The translations under genes were made by a program, and so were the position numbers. Shown here one piece after another: positions 2,976 through 14,342 of a DNA stretch of 64,000 bases. Position 1 is the first letter of the stretch. The number at the start of each line of letters is the position of its first letter. Location of the stretch: the IMG/VR virus record IMGVR_UViG_3300030620_000004, positions 1 through 64,000 of that record; one strand, 5' to 3'. The DNA is from a virus (Duplodnaviria > Caudoviricetes). The notes below the pieces were generated by a model. The model ran no database searches. It saw only the letters and a program-made list of their open reading frames with translations, and had not been told where the DNA came from.

Positions 2976-3237
2976 TTAGGGGAGTGTGACATACTTTTTG
3001 CAGTCTCTGCAACCCGCGAGCAGCCGCTGGCCCGTACACGAGCCACGTCGTCTTGCCTTCGCGATAGGTCCGCATGCCCTTGATCGTGTCTCGAATCGCA
3101 AGCAGCCAACGGTCAGCAGTAGGCAGCGACTTGCCTGTACACCTCGCAATGGTCGTGCGGCTGTGCATCGTCCCCTTGAGCAAGTCGTCGACGAGCAGAA
3201 GCATCTGAAAGTTCGTGCATGCCCATCGATCTTTCAT
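2884..3237 (-). CDS. Hypothetical HTH-type DNA-binding protein
   Basis: SRTTIARCTGKSLPTADRWL is HTH-like; ATGA overlap with the upstream gene at 3234-3237. Confidence 0.45.
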   Translation of the reverse strand: MKDRWACTNFQMLLLVDDLLKGTMHSRTTIARCTGKSLPTADRWLLAIRDTIKGMRTYREGKTTWLVYGPAAARGLQRLQKVCHTPLNEPSRERRNRHVEEAQRAQTNTARKAVCGL

Positions 3238-3551
3238 CCGCGACGCTTCCTTGCCTTCCGCCGAGCTTGGCAGGTTCGAAGAAAGGCTGTGAGCGCCAAG
3301 AGCGCGATGCGATCTGCAATCTCGACGACTGCGTCTGGGTTCGTCATGCCGAGCTCGGCGCGCTTGGCTGCCGTCTCCTCCCAATACCACCGGGCGTTGC
3401 GCTCGAAGGTTCCACGCTCGTCGAGGAAGAGCCAGCCTTCACGCGACTCGAGCACGCCTTCAACCGTCACCTTGAGCACACCCTTGAGCACGTCGAACCG
3501 CACCTTGGTCTCGACCCGCTCAGGCGCCGACGTCGGCGTGTCCGTGCGCAT
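3234..3551 (-). CDS. Hypothetical protein
   Basis: ORF coupled to its neighbours (MRTDTPT...). Confidence 0.5.
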   Translation of the reverse strand: MRTDTPTSAPERVETKVRFDVLKGVLKVTVEGVLESREGWLFLDERGTFERNARWYWEETAAKRAELGMTNPDAVVEIADRIALLALTAFLRTCQARRKARKRRG

Positions 3552-9421: not shown

Positions 9422-9777
9422 GATTCAACAGTCTGCAACAGCTCGTGAATCTTGTCGAGGCTCTCGCTCAACCCAGGCGTCCTCGCATGCGAGACCCAGA
9501 TCCCGTTTTCAAGCGTGCTTCCAGCCGCTTGTAGTTCGGCTTCAACCATCACCAATGCTTCGTGAAGCTTCACCTTCTCTGTGCGAGCGGTGTTCGCTTG
9601 CTCGCGGGCGGTGTTCGCTTGCAGGCTGAGCTGACGCGCGACTGCGCCGAGCTGCACGTTCTCGTTCAGGGCGTCACCGAGGGCTTCCGAATAGAAGTCG
9701 AGCACGGCTTTAATGGCGTTGTGGGCAAGCGTCGTGCGACGCGATACTTTCGTTTCGGGGGGTGGCTGTTCACTCAT
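9418..9777 (-). CDS. Hypothetical coiled-coil protein
   Basis: Coupled ORF. Confidence 0.55.
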   Translation of the reverse strand: MSEQPPPETKVSRRTTLAHNAIKAVLDFYSEALGDALNENVQLGAVARQLSLQANTAREQANTARTEKVKLHEALVMVEAELQAAGSTLENGIWVSHARTPGLSESLDKIHELLQTVES

Positions 9778-10255
9778 CGGATTGCTCCTTGTCGTAGGGA
9801 CTCAGGTCGAGATGCACGGGGAACGGGCCCGCACCCTGCAATGTTTCCGCAATCGCAGTGCGCTGTTCAGATGAGAGATGCGCGAGCGGGCTGTTCGGGT
9901 CGTAGCCGAGCTCGAGTATCTCGCGCCATCCGCGGTGCTGCTCTGCGAGCGACCAGTCCTGCGCTTCAATCTCAGCAAGATGGTCAGGGTCGACCGCAGG
10001 CCCCGGCCACCCGCGCTCTTGCCACTCGTAGCCACGAGTGAACCCCTCGCGATAGCAGTTCTGTCCGAAGGTCAAAGCAAACTGCACCCACTGCTCGGGA
10101 CTCGCGTTCGCGTTGTACACCTGGAACAAGCGCACTCGTTCGGCCAACCTGCGAGGCGGGGCTGCGACTTCGTAGAAACTCGAAGTCACCCGCTCGAGTA
10201 GCTTCACGATGAAGCGCTTGAGCCAGGTCGACGGCTTGAACAGGTCCCAGTTCAC
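9770..10255 (-). CDS. Hypothetical protein
   Basis: Coupled ORF. Confidence 0.6.
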   Translation of the reverse strand: MNWDLFKPSTWLKRFIVKLLERVTSSFYEVAAPPRRLAERVRLFQVYNANASPEQWVQFALTFGQNCYREGFTRGYEWQERGWPGPAVDPDHLAEIEAQDWSLAEQHRGWREILELGYDPNSPLAHLSSEQRTAIAETLQGAGPFPVHLDLSPYDKEQSDE

Positions 10256-10908
10256 TTCTTCGGAAACACCTTGCAGATAGCGGTGACGGCTTCGGCCTCA
10301 CTGTCCGTGTTCAGCTTCTTCTTCGCCGACGCAATTGCAGCCGACACCACCGTGTGCTGCTGTGGAGTGAGCGAGACCTTGAGGCCGACCCACCCCGACT
10401 CGCCGTCGCCCGAGTCACCCTCCTCGCCGCCTTTGTCGCCGTCTTCACTGAGCTGCTTCCAGTCGAAGTCGGCCTGCTCCAAGATCGCTTGGAGCTCGTC
10501 GTCACCGTAGGGCAGGAGGCGTCGCAGGCTTTCGTCGTCCTCAAGAATCTGCTTGATCAAGGCACCGCGTAACGCCGGGTCCTGCTCACCCCTCAAGTTG
10601 TTCAGGATGTCCGTCAGAGCCTTGGCCTTTGCGTCGCTGAGGGTGCCCAGGCTGATGCACTCGATCTCGTCATAGCCCTCGGCGACCGCACCCTTCCAGC
10701 GGTGCTCGCCATCGATCATCTGGTACCACCCCTTTTTCTTGGGGTGCTCGCGCACAGTGCACGGGTCGATGAACCCAAACTCGCGAATCGACTCCCGCTC
10801 CTTCTCGAACATGAAGTCGCTCTGCTTGTTCGGGTTCCACGGGTTGGGTTCGATGCGGTCGACCGCAATCGTGATCGTCTTCTGGGCGCTCTTCTTCGGT
10901 GTCGTCAT
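10252..10908 (-). CDS. ParB/Srx N-terminal domain protein
   Basis: IEPNPWNPN...SIREFGFIDPCTVRE...YQMIDGEHRW; acidic linker; short C-terminal domain. Confidence 0.88.
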   Translation of the reverse strand: MTTPKKSAQKTITIAVDRIEPNPWNPNKQSDFMFEKERESIREFGFIDPCTVREHPKKKGWYQMIDGEHRWKGAVAEGYDEIECISLGTLSDAKAKALTDILNNLRGEQDPALRGALIKQILEDDESLRRLLPYGDDELQAILEQADFDWKQLSEDGDKGGEEGDSGDGESGWVGLKVSLTPQQHTVVSAAIASAKKKLNTDSEAEAVTAICKVFPKK

Positions 10909-11762
10909 GGCAACCTTGTCTGGACTGGGGTGAACCGCGTGTCGAGCCAGTTCTGGTACATCCGGAAAGAGTACGCCCCCATCATGTGGTCGATGTCGTA
11001 GTCAGCCCTCGCCGTCTGCTCGATCGCCGGAACGCGCTTCAGCACTTCCTCGCGGTAGTGCTGATAGAATGGCGAGTTGGTCGACACGGTGAACAAGCCG
11101 CGCTGCGGGTTCCAGATGAGGTTCGTGCCGAACCGCGGCCCGCTCATCCACGCTGCGGAGTCGCTGCTCACGGCTCGACTCGTCTGCAACATGCGTGGGG
11201 TCGAGCACCCGAGTAGGTGCACCTTGGGGGGTCGCTTGCGCTTCCGCTTGCAGACGTCGTGAATGCGGCGCAAGAGCTCGGAGGAAAGTGCCGCTGCTTT
11301 GCGGTTACCGACGAGCCGCCGAAGTTCTGGGAAACTGAACGAGATGTAGTCGTACTCGAGCGCCATCCGCTCGAGCCCTTCGATGCCGTCGGGTTGATGC
11401 CAGACGTACATGGTGCGGTCCTTGAACGGCTCGAACAACTTGCGAAGCTCCATGGTCTTCTCGACGCCCAGAATGCGCTGTGCGTCGGCTTCGATAATCC
11501 AGCCCTTGTAACCCCACTGCGTCAGGTCTGCGAGATACTTGCTCGTGTAGACGTGGTAAGCCTCGAGCGTCGATTCCATTTCCTTCACACCCGTCATGAA
11601 CGAGAACAAGCCCGAATCCATGATGGTCTTCGAGGGGTCGCGTAACACGAACGTCTCGGTGAGTGCCGGCGTCAGGTACTGGTACGAGTAGAGCCTGTAG
11701 GGGTACTCGACAGCGTCCAGCAGACGGTCCTGGTACAGAGCGCTCACGGCGTAGAGCTGCAT
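10905..11762 (-). CDS. tRNA-guanine transglycosylase-fold (DpdA-like) base-exchange enzyme
   Basis: IMDSGLFS (compare TGT DSGGF), VWH, KVHLLG, SSDSAAW motifs; clustered with FolE and ParB-N. Confidence 0.72.
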   Translation of the reverse strand: MQLYAVSALYQDRLLDAVEYPYRLYSYQYLTPALTETFVLRDPSKTIMDSGLFSFMTGVKEMESTLEAYHVYTSKYLADLTQWGYKGWIIEADAQRILGVEKTMELRKLFEPFKDRTMYVWHQPDGIEGLERMALEYDYISFSFPELRRLVGNRKAAALSSELLRRIHDVCKRKRKRPPKVHLLGCSTPRMLQTSRAVSSDSAAWMSGPRFGTNLIWNPQRGLFTVSTNSPFYQHYREEVLKRVPAIEQTARADYDIDHMMGAYSFRMYQNWLDTRFTPVQTRLP

Positions 11763-12806
11763 TCAGGCGCCGTCCTGAGGTGCCAAGCAGATCGCATCCC
11801 ACAGCTGCCTGCGAGCCTTGAGCATGCGGCGCGCCGCCATCGACGCCGCGTCCCACTTCGACTCGTCATCGCCGCACAGGGATTGCAGCAGCTTCAACGC
11901 AGCCGGGCCGTGTTCGTTGCCGTCCATTGCAATGTGCCGGTCGAGGTAGACCTTGAGCTTCGAGCACTCGGCGCCTTGGCGCTCGAGCGAGTCGAGCAGA
12001 CGCCTGAACATGGTCGGGATGATTTCTTCGCGGCCGATTGCAAACCCTGCCGCGATGCTCCACGCCAAGCCCGTGTTCACGATGCCCATCGTCGTCAGCA
12101 CGAAGTCCCGCGCTGCAAGCGGGGCGTCGCACTTCTCGAGCGCGACGCTCACGAGCTCGCCACTCTTCAGGGCCTCAATGAACGCCGTTACGCACTTGGT
12201 GTCCGCACCGACCTCGCGCATCGCTTCCAGGTAGAGCTCGAAGTGCGAGGCCACCTGTCCGTTCACCTCATCGCTTTCCTCATCGAGCACCACCTGATTC
12301 ACCAGGCGCCGGGTGCCTGGGTCCCCAACCGGCAGCCACACAAGATCGACGTGGGTCGTCAACCGCTGCAACGCCTTGACCAAACACATGAAGTCCCAGA
12401 CCGCGAAAACGTGGTGGCGCATGAAGCCACGGACGTCGTCGACCGTCGTCATGCGTTCGTACACCTTGCTCTGCATCACCGCATCGCGATCGATGGCAAC
12501 CGAAGCGAGGAAGGTGTCGAGATGCTGGCGACGGGGCGGCTCGCCCAAGAGTCGCTTGATGAACGCATGCGTGACCACTTCCTTGCGGTAGCGGGGGTCC
12601 TGCTCCGCGACGCCTTGCGACTTCAAGTCGAGCATCTTGCCCCGGCTCGCTTCGAGCGCGATCAAGGCCACCGCATCTCGCTCGACCGTGCCCTTGCTCA
12701 CGGCATCTTCGATGGCATTCCACGCCTGCACCGGGCCGTGCTGGTGAATGGTACACCCTTGCACAGTCTGGCGCAGGCGCTTCGCCAGAACTTCTGCTCC
12801 GCTCAT
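11763..12806 (-). CDS. DUF3050-family heme-oxygenase-like diiron enzyme with an extra N-terminal domain of about 110 aa
   Basis: FMRHHVFAVWDFMCLVKALQ, VLDEESD, SHFELYLEAMREVGAD, GREEIIPTMF, RHIAMDGNEHG. Confidence 0.85.
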   Translation of the reverse strand: MSGAEVLAKRLRQTVQGCTIHQHGPVQAWNAIEDAVSKGTVERDAVALIALEASRGKMLDLKSQGVAEQDPRYRKEVVTHAFIKRLLGEPPRRQHLDTFLASVAIDRDAVMQSKVYERMTTVDDVRGFMRHHVFAVWDFMCLVKALQRLTTHVDLVWLPVGDPGTRRLVNQVVLDEESDEVNGQVASHFELYLEAMREVGADTKCVTAFIEALKSGELVSVALEKCDAPLAARDFVLTTMGIVNTGLAWSIAAGFAIGREEIIPTMFRRLLDSLERQGAECSKLKVYLDRHIAMDGNEHGPAALKLLQSLCGDDESKWDAASMAARRMLKARRQLWDAICLAPQDGA

Positions 12807-12811
12807 CGTGG

Positions 12812-13435
12812 TTACGCTCCGAAGAGCGGTCGCTTCGCGTACGCAGCCGCCAGAAAGTCTCGACGCCACGGGTCGACCTTGAGGTCACCTCGGAACCCTT
12901 GAATCGTCACGACCTCTTGCGACGGCGCGTTGCTCTTGCAGACCAGGCACATGTGGGTCGAGTGCAGCACAAGCCCGACGCCCTTGGGTTCCAGCACCGT
13001 CTCGAGCGCATCGAGTGCATCCTTGAGCAGGCGCTCGTTCAACTGCGGCTGGCGCGATAGGTAGTTCAACGCTTTCTTGACCTTCGAGTAGCCCGTCACC
13101 CGCTTGTCGGGGATGTACGCGAAATGCGCAACGCCGAGCGCAGGCGCAAGGTGGTGCTCGCACATCGAAATGTAGTGGCAGTCCGTCACCATGATGAGGT
13201 CGTCGAGGCCTGGGTTCTCGAAACACTTCCACGGAATCTCGATGTCGCACCACGGCGCGTTGATGATGTCGGCGTACATCTCCGCAATGCGGCGCGGCGT
13301 GTCCGCCATCACCTCGGGCTTATCCTGCTGGCCGAGGCCAAGTAGAACCTTGCGCATGCCCTCCTCGATCAAGTCGAGGTCGACTGGCTTTGGCGGTAGC
13401 TGTTCACCGGGTGTCGGCGGTTTCGGTTCGTTCAT
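12812..13435 (-). CDS. folE: GTP cyclohydrolase I (FolE)-like T-fold protein, divergent
   Basis: DTPRRIAEMY, SMCEHH, AHFAYIP, GYSK, QPQLNERL, HMC. Confidence 0.88.
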   Translation of the reverse strand: MNEPKPPTPGEQLPPKPVDLDLIEEGMRKVLLGLGQQDKPEVMADTPRRIAEMYADIINAPWCDIEIPWKCFENPGLDDLIMVTDCHYISMCEHHLAPALGVAHFAYIPDKRVTGYSKVKKALNYLSRQPQLNERLLKDALDALETVLEPKGVGLVLHSTHMCLVCKSNAPSQEVVTIQGFRGDLKVDPWRRDFLAAAYAKRPLFGA

Positions 13436-13938
13436 CGTCTTCCTTTCAACCTTGCGGCTTGCTCGACCAACCAAGCGTTCACTAGATGGTTGTCGGCTCG
13501 GTTCTTGATCATCTTCACACCTTCGAGGTCCCACGAGTCCCAGCTCAACACCGGGCGTCCGTACTCGAGTGCGAAACTCATCTCTTGCAGGGTGCCATGC
13601 CCCCCCGGCACAGCAATCATGCAGTCGGCCACAAGCGCCGTCAGCACGTTGCGCGCGAGACCAATGCCCGTCGGCACGACAATCTGAATCCACTCGTTCG
13701 CGGCATCGCGGTCCGCCTCCGGCAAGATGCCGAGCGTCATCCCGTTCTCGTACCGCGCCCCCTTTGCAGCTGCCGCCATCGCCCCTGACTTACCCCCCGT
13801 CGCAACGAGAAAGCCAGCACGTGCTGCAAACACCCCAGCGTGCCAAGCCATCGACTCGACCCCTGGTGACCACTTCGATCCGGTCTCTTTCGTACCGACG
13901 ATCGTGCAGACGCACTGCCGACTTGTTTCGACGTTCAT
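13432..13938 (-). CDS. LOG/SLOG-family (TIGR00725-like) nucleotide phosphoribohydrolase
   Basis: VATGGKSGAMAAAAKGA, TLGILP, TGIGLARN, PGGHGTLQEMSFAL. Confidence 0.88.
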   Translation of the reverse strand: MNVETSRQCVCTIVGTKETGSKWSPGVESMAWHAGVFAARAGFLVATGGKSGAMAAAAKGARYENGMTLGILPEADRDAANEWIQIVVPTGIGLARNVLTALVADCMIAVPGGHGTLQEMSFALEYGRPVLSWDSWDLEGVKMIKNRADNHLVNAWLVEQAARLKGRR

Positions 13939-13964: not shown

Positions 13965-14342
13965 TCACGACCACGCAATCTTGGAAGCCCCAAACTCGGC
14001 AACAGCCGCGAGCCAGCGCTCGAACCCCTTCAAATCCTGAGTCAAAGTCTCCTCGGTCACTTCGTACAACGGCCGAAACCGAAACCCAAACCCGTCCCGA
14101 ACGCAGTCGGAGCACCCTGGGTGGGCTCTCAAGATGTCGGGCACCCGGCGCTTCCACAACGCTACGGCGTACATTACGCACCGGCGCGCATGCCACAGCT
14201 CGGCCTCGCGCAGGGTGTTCGCCTGCGACCCCAGGCGCAACAGGGCAAGCAACGCCTTCGCTCGCCCCGTCTCCAAGACTTGGAACCGCGGTCCCGCCAC
14301 GAGCTTGGAACCCGCGCCCTTCAATGCCAGAAAGTTCACCAT
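13965..14342 (-). CDS. Hypothetical protein
   Basis: ORF filling the gap between the resolvase and LOG genes. Confidence 0.45.
   Translation of the reverse strand: MVNFLALKGAGSKLVAGPRFQVLETGRAKALLALLRLGSQANTLREAELWHARRCVMYAVALWKRRVPDILRAHPGCSDCVRDGFGFRFRPLYEVTEETLTQDLKGFERWLAAVAEFGASKIAWS

Follow-up and report, generated by a model that had tools for sequence, protein, structure and literature searches.

Every base inserted by DpdA transglycosylases in three published descriptions (PMC6884629, PMC10516641, PMC10164549) is a 7-deazaguanine made via QueD and QueE; what, then, would such an enzyme insert in a phage whose genome shows neither? This question is raised by IMG/VR virus record IMGVR_UViG_3300030620_000004 (Duplodnaviria; Caudoviricetes; 86,186 bases, 63% G+C, 93% complete according to CheckV), the first 64,000 nucleotides (64 kb) of which form the window analysed here. 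At positions 10252–13938, five closely packed minus-strand open reading frames (ORFs) encode proteins that Pfam and PHROG profile scans assigned to the LOG, GTP cyclohydrolase I (GCH-I), DUF3050, queuine tRNA-ribosyltransferase and ParB_N families. We propose, with a probability of about 0.6 and on the strength of protein homology and gene context, that this cluster is a DNA guanine-replacement system, in which a DpdA-like enzyme and its ParB partner would be fed a guanine analogue that is not a 7-deazaguanine and is made from GTP by relatives of the 8-azaguanine pathway enzymes.

An earlier note, made from the sequence alone, had read the five genes as a coupled unit without queD, queE or queC. 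The ORF coordinates bear out the coupling: 4-base start/stop overlaps (13432–13435 and 10905–10908) and gaps of 5 bases (12807–12811) and 0 bases (11762/11763) join consecutive genes, and a further overlap (10252–10255) joins the stop of the ParB gene to the start of the gene that follows, which encodes 161 amino acids (aa). The missing queuosine genes were equally confirmed. Six-frame searches of the whole 86,186-base record for QueD (PF01242), QueC (PF06508) and radical SAM/QueE (PF04055) gave zero matches at E ≤ 1, and control genomes scored in the same searches.

The protein at the centre of the proposal, P0004 (10905–11762, minus strand, 285 aa), is a putative DpdA-type transglycosylase, as judged from its predicted structure. 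By sequence, its only family evidence is a match to phrog_887, 'queuine tRNA-ribosyltransferase' (E = 5.6e-20); it gave no Pfam match (including TGT, PF01702) and no NCBIfam match, and it could be placed neither in PF01702 nor in a named DpdA subfamily. A PDB sequence search with the DpdA-family profile returned nothing meaningful, a scan of IMG/VR with P0004 alone returned zero relatives, and a collection of 5.8 billion proteins held only nine. The AlphaFold2 model built on these nine relatives reached a pLDDT of 84, and its top Foldseek matches in the PDB were all tRNA-guanine transglycosylases (TGTs). VIA-align placed the model on a TGT with a Z score of 17.3 and a root mean square deviation of 3.4–3.5 Å over about 252 residues (model residues 1–278), and thus recovered the TGT TIM barrel that had been suspected in this 285-aa protein. 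Among 12 sequences, D49-S50-G51, H182 and D201-S202 are invariant and F53 is almost so, giving a DSGxF motif and a second invariant Asp. Salmonella DpdA uses Asp95 as general acid/base, Phe99 for stacking and Asp256 as nucleophile (PMC10164549); the spacing from D to F in P0004 equals that from Asp95 to Phe99, the residues having been mapped by motif rather than by residue-level superposition.

P0005 (10252–10908, minus strand, 218 aa; PF02195, 4.3e-10; phrog_723, 1.5e-22) adjoins the DpdA-like gene with a 4-base overlap, and the two genes are adjacent in every related locus. This ParB_N protein is likely to act with DpdA as an NTPase of the DpdB type; in bacteria, insertion by DpdA needs DpdB, an ATPase of the ParB superfamily (PMC10164549).

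The three genes ahead of this pair point away from 7-deazaguanine. P0002 (12812–13435, minus strand, 207 aa; PF01227, GTP_cyclohydroI, 1.4e-39) is, by sequence, a PtnA-clade GTP cyclohydrolase I homologue and not a housekeeping or Que-type FolE. It is 57–58% identical to Streptomyces PtnA orthologues and 70–80% identical to other phage and bacterial members of the clade, with 28–29% identity to the FolE of syntenic Que cassettes; it shares the clade-specific motifs GYSK, RQPQLNERL and NAPSQEVVT, and it scores below all NCBIfam FolE cut-offs (137 bits versus 162). A maximum-likelihood tree of 24 cyclohydrolases joined the phage-cassette, bacterial-operon and PtnA sequences in one group, set apart from housekeeping and Que-linked FolEs by a branch with 100/100 support and a length of 3.4. 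The zinc-binding and catalytic residues C92, H94, H95, H161 and C163 are kept, aligned to the CEHH and H-x-C motifs of solved GCH-I structures, and two bacterial genomes with a PtnA-clade operon also encode a separate, normal FolE. PtnA is genetically essential for 8-azaguanine formation and has been proposed to remove C8 of GTP hydrolytically without rearrangement of the carbon skeleton (PMC7109123).

P0001 (13432–13938, minus strand, 168 aa) is a LOG-family protein, as first recognized, and more exactly a member of the SLOG cluster-4 family (Pfam LDcluster4, PF18306, 2.2e-31), to which PtnC orthologues also belong. Its identity to the PtnC orthologue encoded in a Streptomyces ptn cluster is 37% (E = 2e-22); R96 and E119 align on the catalytic Arg and Glu of PtnC, and the PGGxGTxxE motif is present as PGGHGTLQE. 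These likenesses suggest a nucleotide N-glycosidase of the PtnC kind, whose part would be to release the modified base. PtnC converts 8-azaGMP to 8-azaguanine in vitro and does not hydrolyse GMP (PMC7109123). A role as carrier of the molybdenum cofactor (Moco) was also considered for P0001 and found less likely than the PtnC-like one, given the intact motif and the Pfam family shared with PtnC orthologues.

P0003 (11763–12806, minus strand, 347 aa; Pfam DUF3050, 2.8e-84) had first been noted as a DUF3050 protein, its PtnB-like part being missed. The five genes stand, but they encode six modules, because P0003 combines a PtnB-like four-helix domain (residues 1 to ~100; 12507–12806, by profile and hhalign) with a DUF3050/HamA-type heme-oxygenase-like iron oxygenase domain (residues ~101–347; 11763–12506; PF11251, 2.8e-84). 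In a search with P0003, the N-terminal extension of about 100 residues was confined to a small phage group, ordinary bacterial DUF3050 proteins being about 260 aa long. Its AlphaFold2 model shows four helices with high pLDDT; a structure and feature search with the N-terminal 100 residues gave no feature matches, and the structural neighbours were generic helical bundles. A PtnB-like profile run against 1.84 billion representative proteins yielded 54 matches in all, among them two Streptomyces proteins of 111 aa (E = 3e-7) and 128 aa (S. hoynatensis, E = 2.5e-8). The loci of these two hold radical SAM, DUF1152, GCH-I (206 aa), the small protein, LDcluster4 (167 aa), NUDIX and major facilitator superfamily pump genes, with a nitric oxide synthase in one of them. 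Because the locus, the gene sizes and S. hoynatensis itself match the published ptnABCDEF/8-azg cluster (206, 111 and 167 aa, with S. hoynatensis as a named carrier; PMC7109123, PMC7674941), we identify the small Streptomyces proteins as PtnB.

The N-terminal domain of P0003 aligned to PtnB with an hhalign probability of 97.3%. The motif RLRQ-x-VQGCT-x-H-x-HGP is invariant in the PtnB-like domain, and PtnB keeps only the Cys and the first His of C-x2-H-x-H; PtnB binds iron and raises the yield of 8-azaguanine (PMC7109123). PtnB-like proteins also occur as separate gene products, of 84–108 aa between the cyclohydrolase and LDcluster4 in three viral loci (L014–L016; L and P numbers denote loci and proteins), and of 88–95 aa after the cyclohydrolase in bacterial loci (L018–L020, L023), where no DUF3050 domain is present. 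A complex prediction for two cyclohydrolase copies with the PtnB-like domain scored 0.00 and was uninformative either way.

Residues 110–339 of P0003 match the crystal structure of HamA (9vwb, E = 1.7e-51), and newer Pfam releases list DUF3050 as HamA_HO-like. HamA residues H40, E84, H96, R167, H199, E206 and R240 correspond to H132, E176, H188, R259, H291, E298 and R332 of P0003, and all HamA residues named at the iron and at the proposed 2-oxoglutarate site are kept. HamA acts in the fragin diazeniumdiolate pathway, where a role in N-oxygenation or N–N bond formation has been proposed and not proven (PMC12522199, PMC11705231). The initial label of diiron oxidase needs correction in its metal count: 'diiron' is not established for DUF3050, as the HamA crystal shows one iron (PMC12522199). 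Some bacterial DUF3050 proteins (P0063, P0125) also carry a truncated-globin domain (PF01152) as a fusion, a hint that this oxygenase family is linked to O2 or NO. Scanning IMG/VR with P0003 alone returned two loci (L004, L005) in unrelated contexts.

The association of these modules was examined across loci. The full set (LDcluster4, PtnA-like, PtnB-like, DUF3050, DpdA-like and ParB) was found in 8/8 distinct phage loci with enough flanking sequence (the window, L006, L009, L010, L012, L014, L015 and L016), so that the five-gene set, first noticed in one genome, recurs in eight independent phage loci. Four gene orders are represented: LOG–GCH–(PtnB+DUF3050)–DpdA–ParB; DpdA–ParB–LOG–GCH–(PtnB+DUF3050); ParB–DpdA–LOG–MazG-like–GCH–(PtnB+DUF3050); and ParB–DpdA–DUF3050–GCH–PtnB–LOG. 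Across the eight loci the DpdA proteins are 18–57% identical and the cyclohydrolases 70–80%. An alignment of four cassette cyclohydrolases, used as query, had added five viral loci, together with eight from bacterial metagenome-assembled genomes (MAGs). The LOG–GCH–DUF3050 part was present on three further contigs, one of 112 kb and two short ones (L036, L037); the short ones came from a metagenome scan that returned mostly ordinary FolEs (33–40% identity), and in each of them LDcluster4 and DUF3050 adjoin the cyclohydrolase of the clade.

By contrast, 0/10 bacterial loci with the same core (L017–L024, L027 and L028, some on contigs that are short or cut beside the core) showed a DUF3050 catalytic domain, DpdA or ParB. 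The oxygenase, present with DpdA/ParB in 8/8 phage loci and in none of these, is thus tied specifically to the DNA-exchange version. The bacterial core forms operons in MAGs of Bacteriovoracaceae, Bdellovibrionales and Elusimicrobia (L018:5278–12494, also L020 and L023, and in part L019 and L024). The Bacteriovoracaceae-type operon comprises Crp, PtnA-like, PtnB-like (88 aa), hydantoinase/allantoinase-like, LDcluster4, gentisate-1,2-dioxygenase-like bicupin, isochorismatase-type amidase and thiamine pyrophosphate (TPP) enzyme (PRK08327) genes; judging by these families, it looks like an undescribed GTP-derived pathway, either catabolic or azacitidine-like.

Among the isolated phages of INPHARED, tblastn found none with this cassette; the matches were distant DpdA-like genes (Faecalibacterium phage Roos, Bacillus phage BCD7) and DUF3050 among radical-SAM genes of the Ralstonia jumbo phages RP12 and RP31. 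In RP12 (L001:810–6765, ORF076–080), DUF3050 ends an operon of three radical-SAM genes and one gene of no known function. In Roos (L002:4903–7499), ParB_N, a DpdA-like protein (32% identical to P0004) and Vut_1/YhhQ stand at the genome end, all annotated as hypothetical; the stretch examined holds no Que genes, and the system is probably a salvage-dependent deazaguanine system.

How the cassette stands to conventional DpdA systems became apparent from its closest relatives. Contigs with the closest DpdA homologues share the backbone SbcD–SbcC–PDDEXK_15–[cassette]–DpdA–ParB_N–unknowns–helicase. The cassette of L007 (DpdA 46% identical to P0004) is QueD–QueE–FolE–QueC; L008 and L025 (45–47%) carry QueD–QueE–FolE, a DpdL-like protein of 120–125 aa and a Vut_1/YhhQ transporter; L026 (41%) carries QueD-like and QueE-like genes (recognized by home-made profiles), FolE, DUF6884 and QueC; and L006 (57%) has LDcluster4–GCH-I–DUF3050 with the PtnB-like domain fused, the same as the window. 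Homologues of P0004 at 41–49% identity thus directly follow QueC/QueD/QueE, or DpdL and Vut_1. Because syntenic phages hold Que-type (or DpdL/YhhQ) genes in the same slot before the same DpdA–ParB pair, the cassette has been swapped. The cyclohydrolase is not a retained FolE, since it is 80% identical to that of L006 but only about 30% identical to the FolE of L007 and L008, although DpdA (46%) and ParB (56–63%) are far closer between the window and these two phages. In sequence, Que-linked and cassette-linked DpdAs differ by FMTG versus FMFGSEKG and by the loss of an 8–10-residue GGGS loop.

The relatives also yielded observations of their own. The DpdL signature motif LxxxHRHxF (PMC10516641) is carried by the 125-aa protein of L008 (6016–6393), and the 120-aa protein of L025 (3812–4174) matches by a home-made profile. 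For these two phages, which lack QueC and have the DpdL-like and Vut_1/YhhQ genes before DpdA, we predict a modification of the 7-deazaguanine (dDG) type within this DpdA clade. DpdL, a QueD paralogue, was rejected as the identity of any gene of the window cluster. In L026, the DUF6884 gene (3011–3364) lies between FolE and QueC of a Que-type cassette.

These observations allow us to propose how the cassette might work, each step being drawn from homology and gene context. First, the PtnA-clade cyclohydrolase would open the imidazole ring of GTP, release C8 as formate and halt before a pterin is formed. Next, the PtnB-like domain of the fusion would handle the unstable ring-opened nucleotide, and the HamA-type oxygenase would use O2 to N-oxygenate it or to rebuild the five-membered ring, placing a new atom at position 8 or 7; candidate products are 8-azaguanine or an N7- or C8-oxygenated guanine. 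Guanine 7-oxide is known as a natural product. After loss of pyrophosphate, the PtnC-like LOG-family nucleosidase would cut the base from ribose 5-phosphate. A MazG-like gene could supply the pyrophosphatase in some relatives, and a host enzyme may do so here, as this genome gave no MazG match. Last, DpdA and the ParB-like NTPase would swap genomic G for the free base after replication, altering the major-groove edge read by restriction enzymes and other defences. The catalytic residues are kept in all four enzymes of the cassette, in support of this proposal. The same succession (ring opening, oxidation, release of the base by LOG and insertion by the TGT-like enzyme) had been sketched in the earlier note, and it now finds a precedent in the homology to PtnA, PtnB and PtnC and in 8-azaguanine biosynthesis (PMC7109123). 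Two lineages, L009 (3776–4186) and L010 (1906–2268), have a small all-alpha MazG-like pyrophosphohydrolase gene within the cassette or next to it; these genes were recognized by eye and by means of a home-made profile, and they match the pyrophosphatase domain of PtnD.

As to the product, where an undescribed purine or pterin-type base had been suggested, a purine replaced at C8 is favoured and a pterin-type base is now less likely. Our leading guess is 8-azaguanine, because the core proteins come from its pathway, the HamA-type domain offers a link to N–N chemistry, and TGT-fold enzymes accept 8-azaguanine (PMC8136771). The full version of this guess, in which genomic G is replaced by 8-azaguanine, the triazole is closed by the PtnB–HamA fusion without a nitric oxide synthase and DpdA inserts the base, is tentative and on balance doubtful.

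Several points weigh against our proposal. In Streptomyces, an NO-derived nitrogen closes the triazole of 8-azaguanine, N8 coming from nitric oxide synthase (PMC7109123), and the phage has no such enzyme (PF02898, no match at E ≤ 1 in the whole virus record). PtnA itself has never been active in vitro (PMC7109123). The sole reported substrate of HamA is carrier-bound valine, and the window neighbour genes scanned contain no carrier protein and no carrier, adenylation or AurF-type domains. MazG (PF03819) found no match in this genome, and no search aimed at NUDIX was made. The solved structures nearest to P0001 are Moco carrier proteins as well as LOGs, that is, they include pterin-binding relatives. 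Because the bacterial operons pair the core with hydantoinase-like, bicupin, amidase and TPP enzymes, its product may be a free aminopyrimidine rather than a re-closed purine. The exchange of 8-azaguanine by TGT is reversible, N7 remaining (PMC8136771), so that the level of modification would be limited. Finally, the host may supply preQ0.

This last point leads to the alternative that survives best, which we nevertheless consider unlikely: the phage would insert an ordinary 7-deazaguanine (preQ0 or a derivative) from the queuosine pathway of its host, and the three extra genes would serve some other purpose or raise precursor supply. Queuosine genes are widespread in bacteria, as the family controls showed; the related DpdAs (41–49% identity) have QueC/D/E or a YhhQ-type preQ0 transporter as linked genes; and Roos, whose DpdA-like gene is accompanied only by Vut_1 and ParB_N, indicates that salvage-dependent phages exist. 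The cyclohydrolase of the window is, however, a PtnA-clade paralogue and not a FolE that feeds QueD, no preQ0 transporter matched among the window neighbours scanned, and the oxygenase, LOG-like and PtnB-like genes follow DpdA/ParB in 8/8 phage loci over four rearrangements, a linkage not easily explained if they had nothing to do with the inserted base.

Less probable again is a soluble purine or pyrimidine antimetabolite or signal (an 8-azaguanine-like toxin, an inhibitor of TGT or of defence, or a GTP sink in host takeover) that stays out of DNA, with DpdA–ParB acting independently. The homologous Streptomyces core does make a secreted antimetabolite (PMC7109123), and bacterial operons employ the core without a transglycosylase. 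Yet the DUF3050 domain occurs only alongside DpdA/ParB (8/8 versus 0/10), the cassette fills the exact slot in which relatives keep the base-synthesis genes for DpdA, and no export pump was seen in the window cluster or the neighbours scanned.

Some other pathways are known to replace radical-SAM steps by O2-dependent ones. An O2-dependent alternative route to a 7-deazaguanine or pterin-type base, in which the cyclohydrolase forms dihydroneopterin triphosphate and QueD/QueE chemistry is taken over by the iron oxygenase, would suit the retention of all GCH-I catalytic residues in P0002 (including the His179 equivalent) and the pterin cofactor bound by the nearest solved relatives of P0001, but it is improbable in view of the PtnA clade, whose only member studied so far leads to a product with its carbon skeleton not rearranged (PMC7109123), of neopterin, which offers a LOG-type N-glycosidase no glycosidic bond to cut, and of the HamA-type enzymes, which have no precedent for pterin-ring contraction. 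All three alternatives are less consistent with the cyclohydrolase phylogeny and the strict DUF3050–DpdA linkage than is a DpdA system fed with a non-7-deaza guanine analogue.

Compared with the described DpdA systems (DpdA1–4, bDpdA/DpdB; PMC6884629, PMC10516641, PMC10164549), the window shares the TGT fold, the DSGxF motif with the second invariant Asp, the ParB-superfamily neighbour and the location in a phage replication module. It differs in that the phage genome lacks QueD/QueE/QueC and that neither NCBIfam cut-offs nor phylogeny place the linked cyclohydrolase among the FolEs; LOG-family, PtnB-like and HamA-type genes are likewise absent from the enzymes described in these papers. In PMC10516641, a search by term turned up neither LOG (lysine decarboxylase) nor heme oxygenase nor ParB used in that sense. 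With ptnABCDEF/8-azgA–K (PMC7109123, PMC7674941) the phage shares homologous, adjoining PtnA, PtnB and PtnC (206/111/167 aa versus 207/~100/168 aa in the phage). Unlike that cluster, it has no nitric oxide synthase; the window cluster and scanned neighbours show no NUDIX or acetyltransferase, efflux pump, radical SAM or DUF1152 gene (no search having been aimed at NUDIX); and it has in addition DpdA, ParB and a HamA-type oxygenase that forms one protein with the PtnB-like domain, so that the product would enter DNA instead of being exported.

The oxygenase domain shares its Pfam family, the match to 9vwb and the iron-site residues with HamA, PvfA and MgoB of the ham, pvf and mgo clusters (PMC12522199, PMC5878181, PMC11705231). 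The neighbours scanned near the phage gene include no nonribosomal peptide synthetase carrier, AurF-type HamC or cupin HamB, and the phage oxygenase is instead fused to a PtnB-like domain amid nucleotide and DNA-modification genes. The azacitidine pathway (PMC13749301), likened here by its description only, follows a similar logic: a GCH-I homologue (AzaE) supplies a triaminopyrimidine, already ring-opened and deribosylated, from which an O2-using enzyme builds the heterocycle anew. That enzyme, AzaA, is a cupin dioxygenase, however, whereas the phage oxygenase is heme-oxygenase-like, and the bacterial bicupin and amidohydrolase operons resemble the azacitidine pathway more than the phage cassette does.

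DpdA-based base exchange is thus known, and the supply pathway proposed here is new, as we found no prior description of it: no paper was found that names both DpdA and 8-azaguanine, and the DUF3050 papers found concern other contexts. The cassette suggests that DpdA-type base exchange has been refitted to use a guanine analogue of different chemistry, made by a second GTP-derived route. If so, natural DNA would gain another base, DpdA enzymes, which are useful for site-specific DNA labelling, would have a wider range of substrates, and both the PtnB-like proteins and the phage DUF3050/HamA enzymes, two orphan families so far, would be given functions. The cassette could also settle enzymatic N–N bond formation in 8-azaguanine-type heterocycles, and it would mark out a target for defence systems that sense modified guanines. 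Were the base in DNA 8-azaguanine, until now known only as a secreted Streptomyces antimetabolite, it would be the first natural replacement of the purine ring in DNA other than a deaza form, and biological triazole closure would for the first time have an enzyme to its name. In the bacterial operons built on the same core there is a hint of another GTP-derived pathway, likewise undescribed.

Soil and sediment metagenomes contain the phage repeatedly: at least half of the stretch is present in 13 sequencing runs, though many of these may represent one sampling campaign or the source sample itself; no RNA run is listed among the runs holding the stretch. Within the genome, the cluster lies in a replication/recombination module, with RecA-like, SbcD-like, SbcC-like and PDDEXK_15 genes and a 125-aa protein of no known family upstream, and a 161-aa protein of no known family, an amidase and a DinG-type helicase downstream. 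The two small flanking genes, both on the minus strand, lie at 9770–10255 (161 aa, its start overlapping the ParB stop) and 13968–14342 (125 aa); the 125-aa protein gave only a weak match to its counterpart in L006. Because genes of similar size occupy the same positions in Que-type relatives, the two probably go with DpdA/ParB or the replication module and not with the new base pathway.

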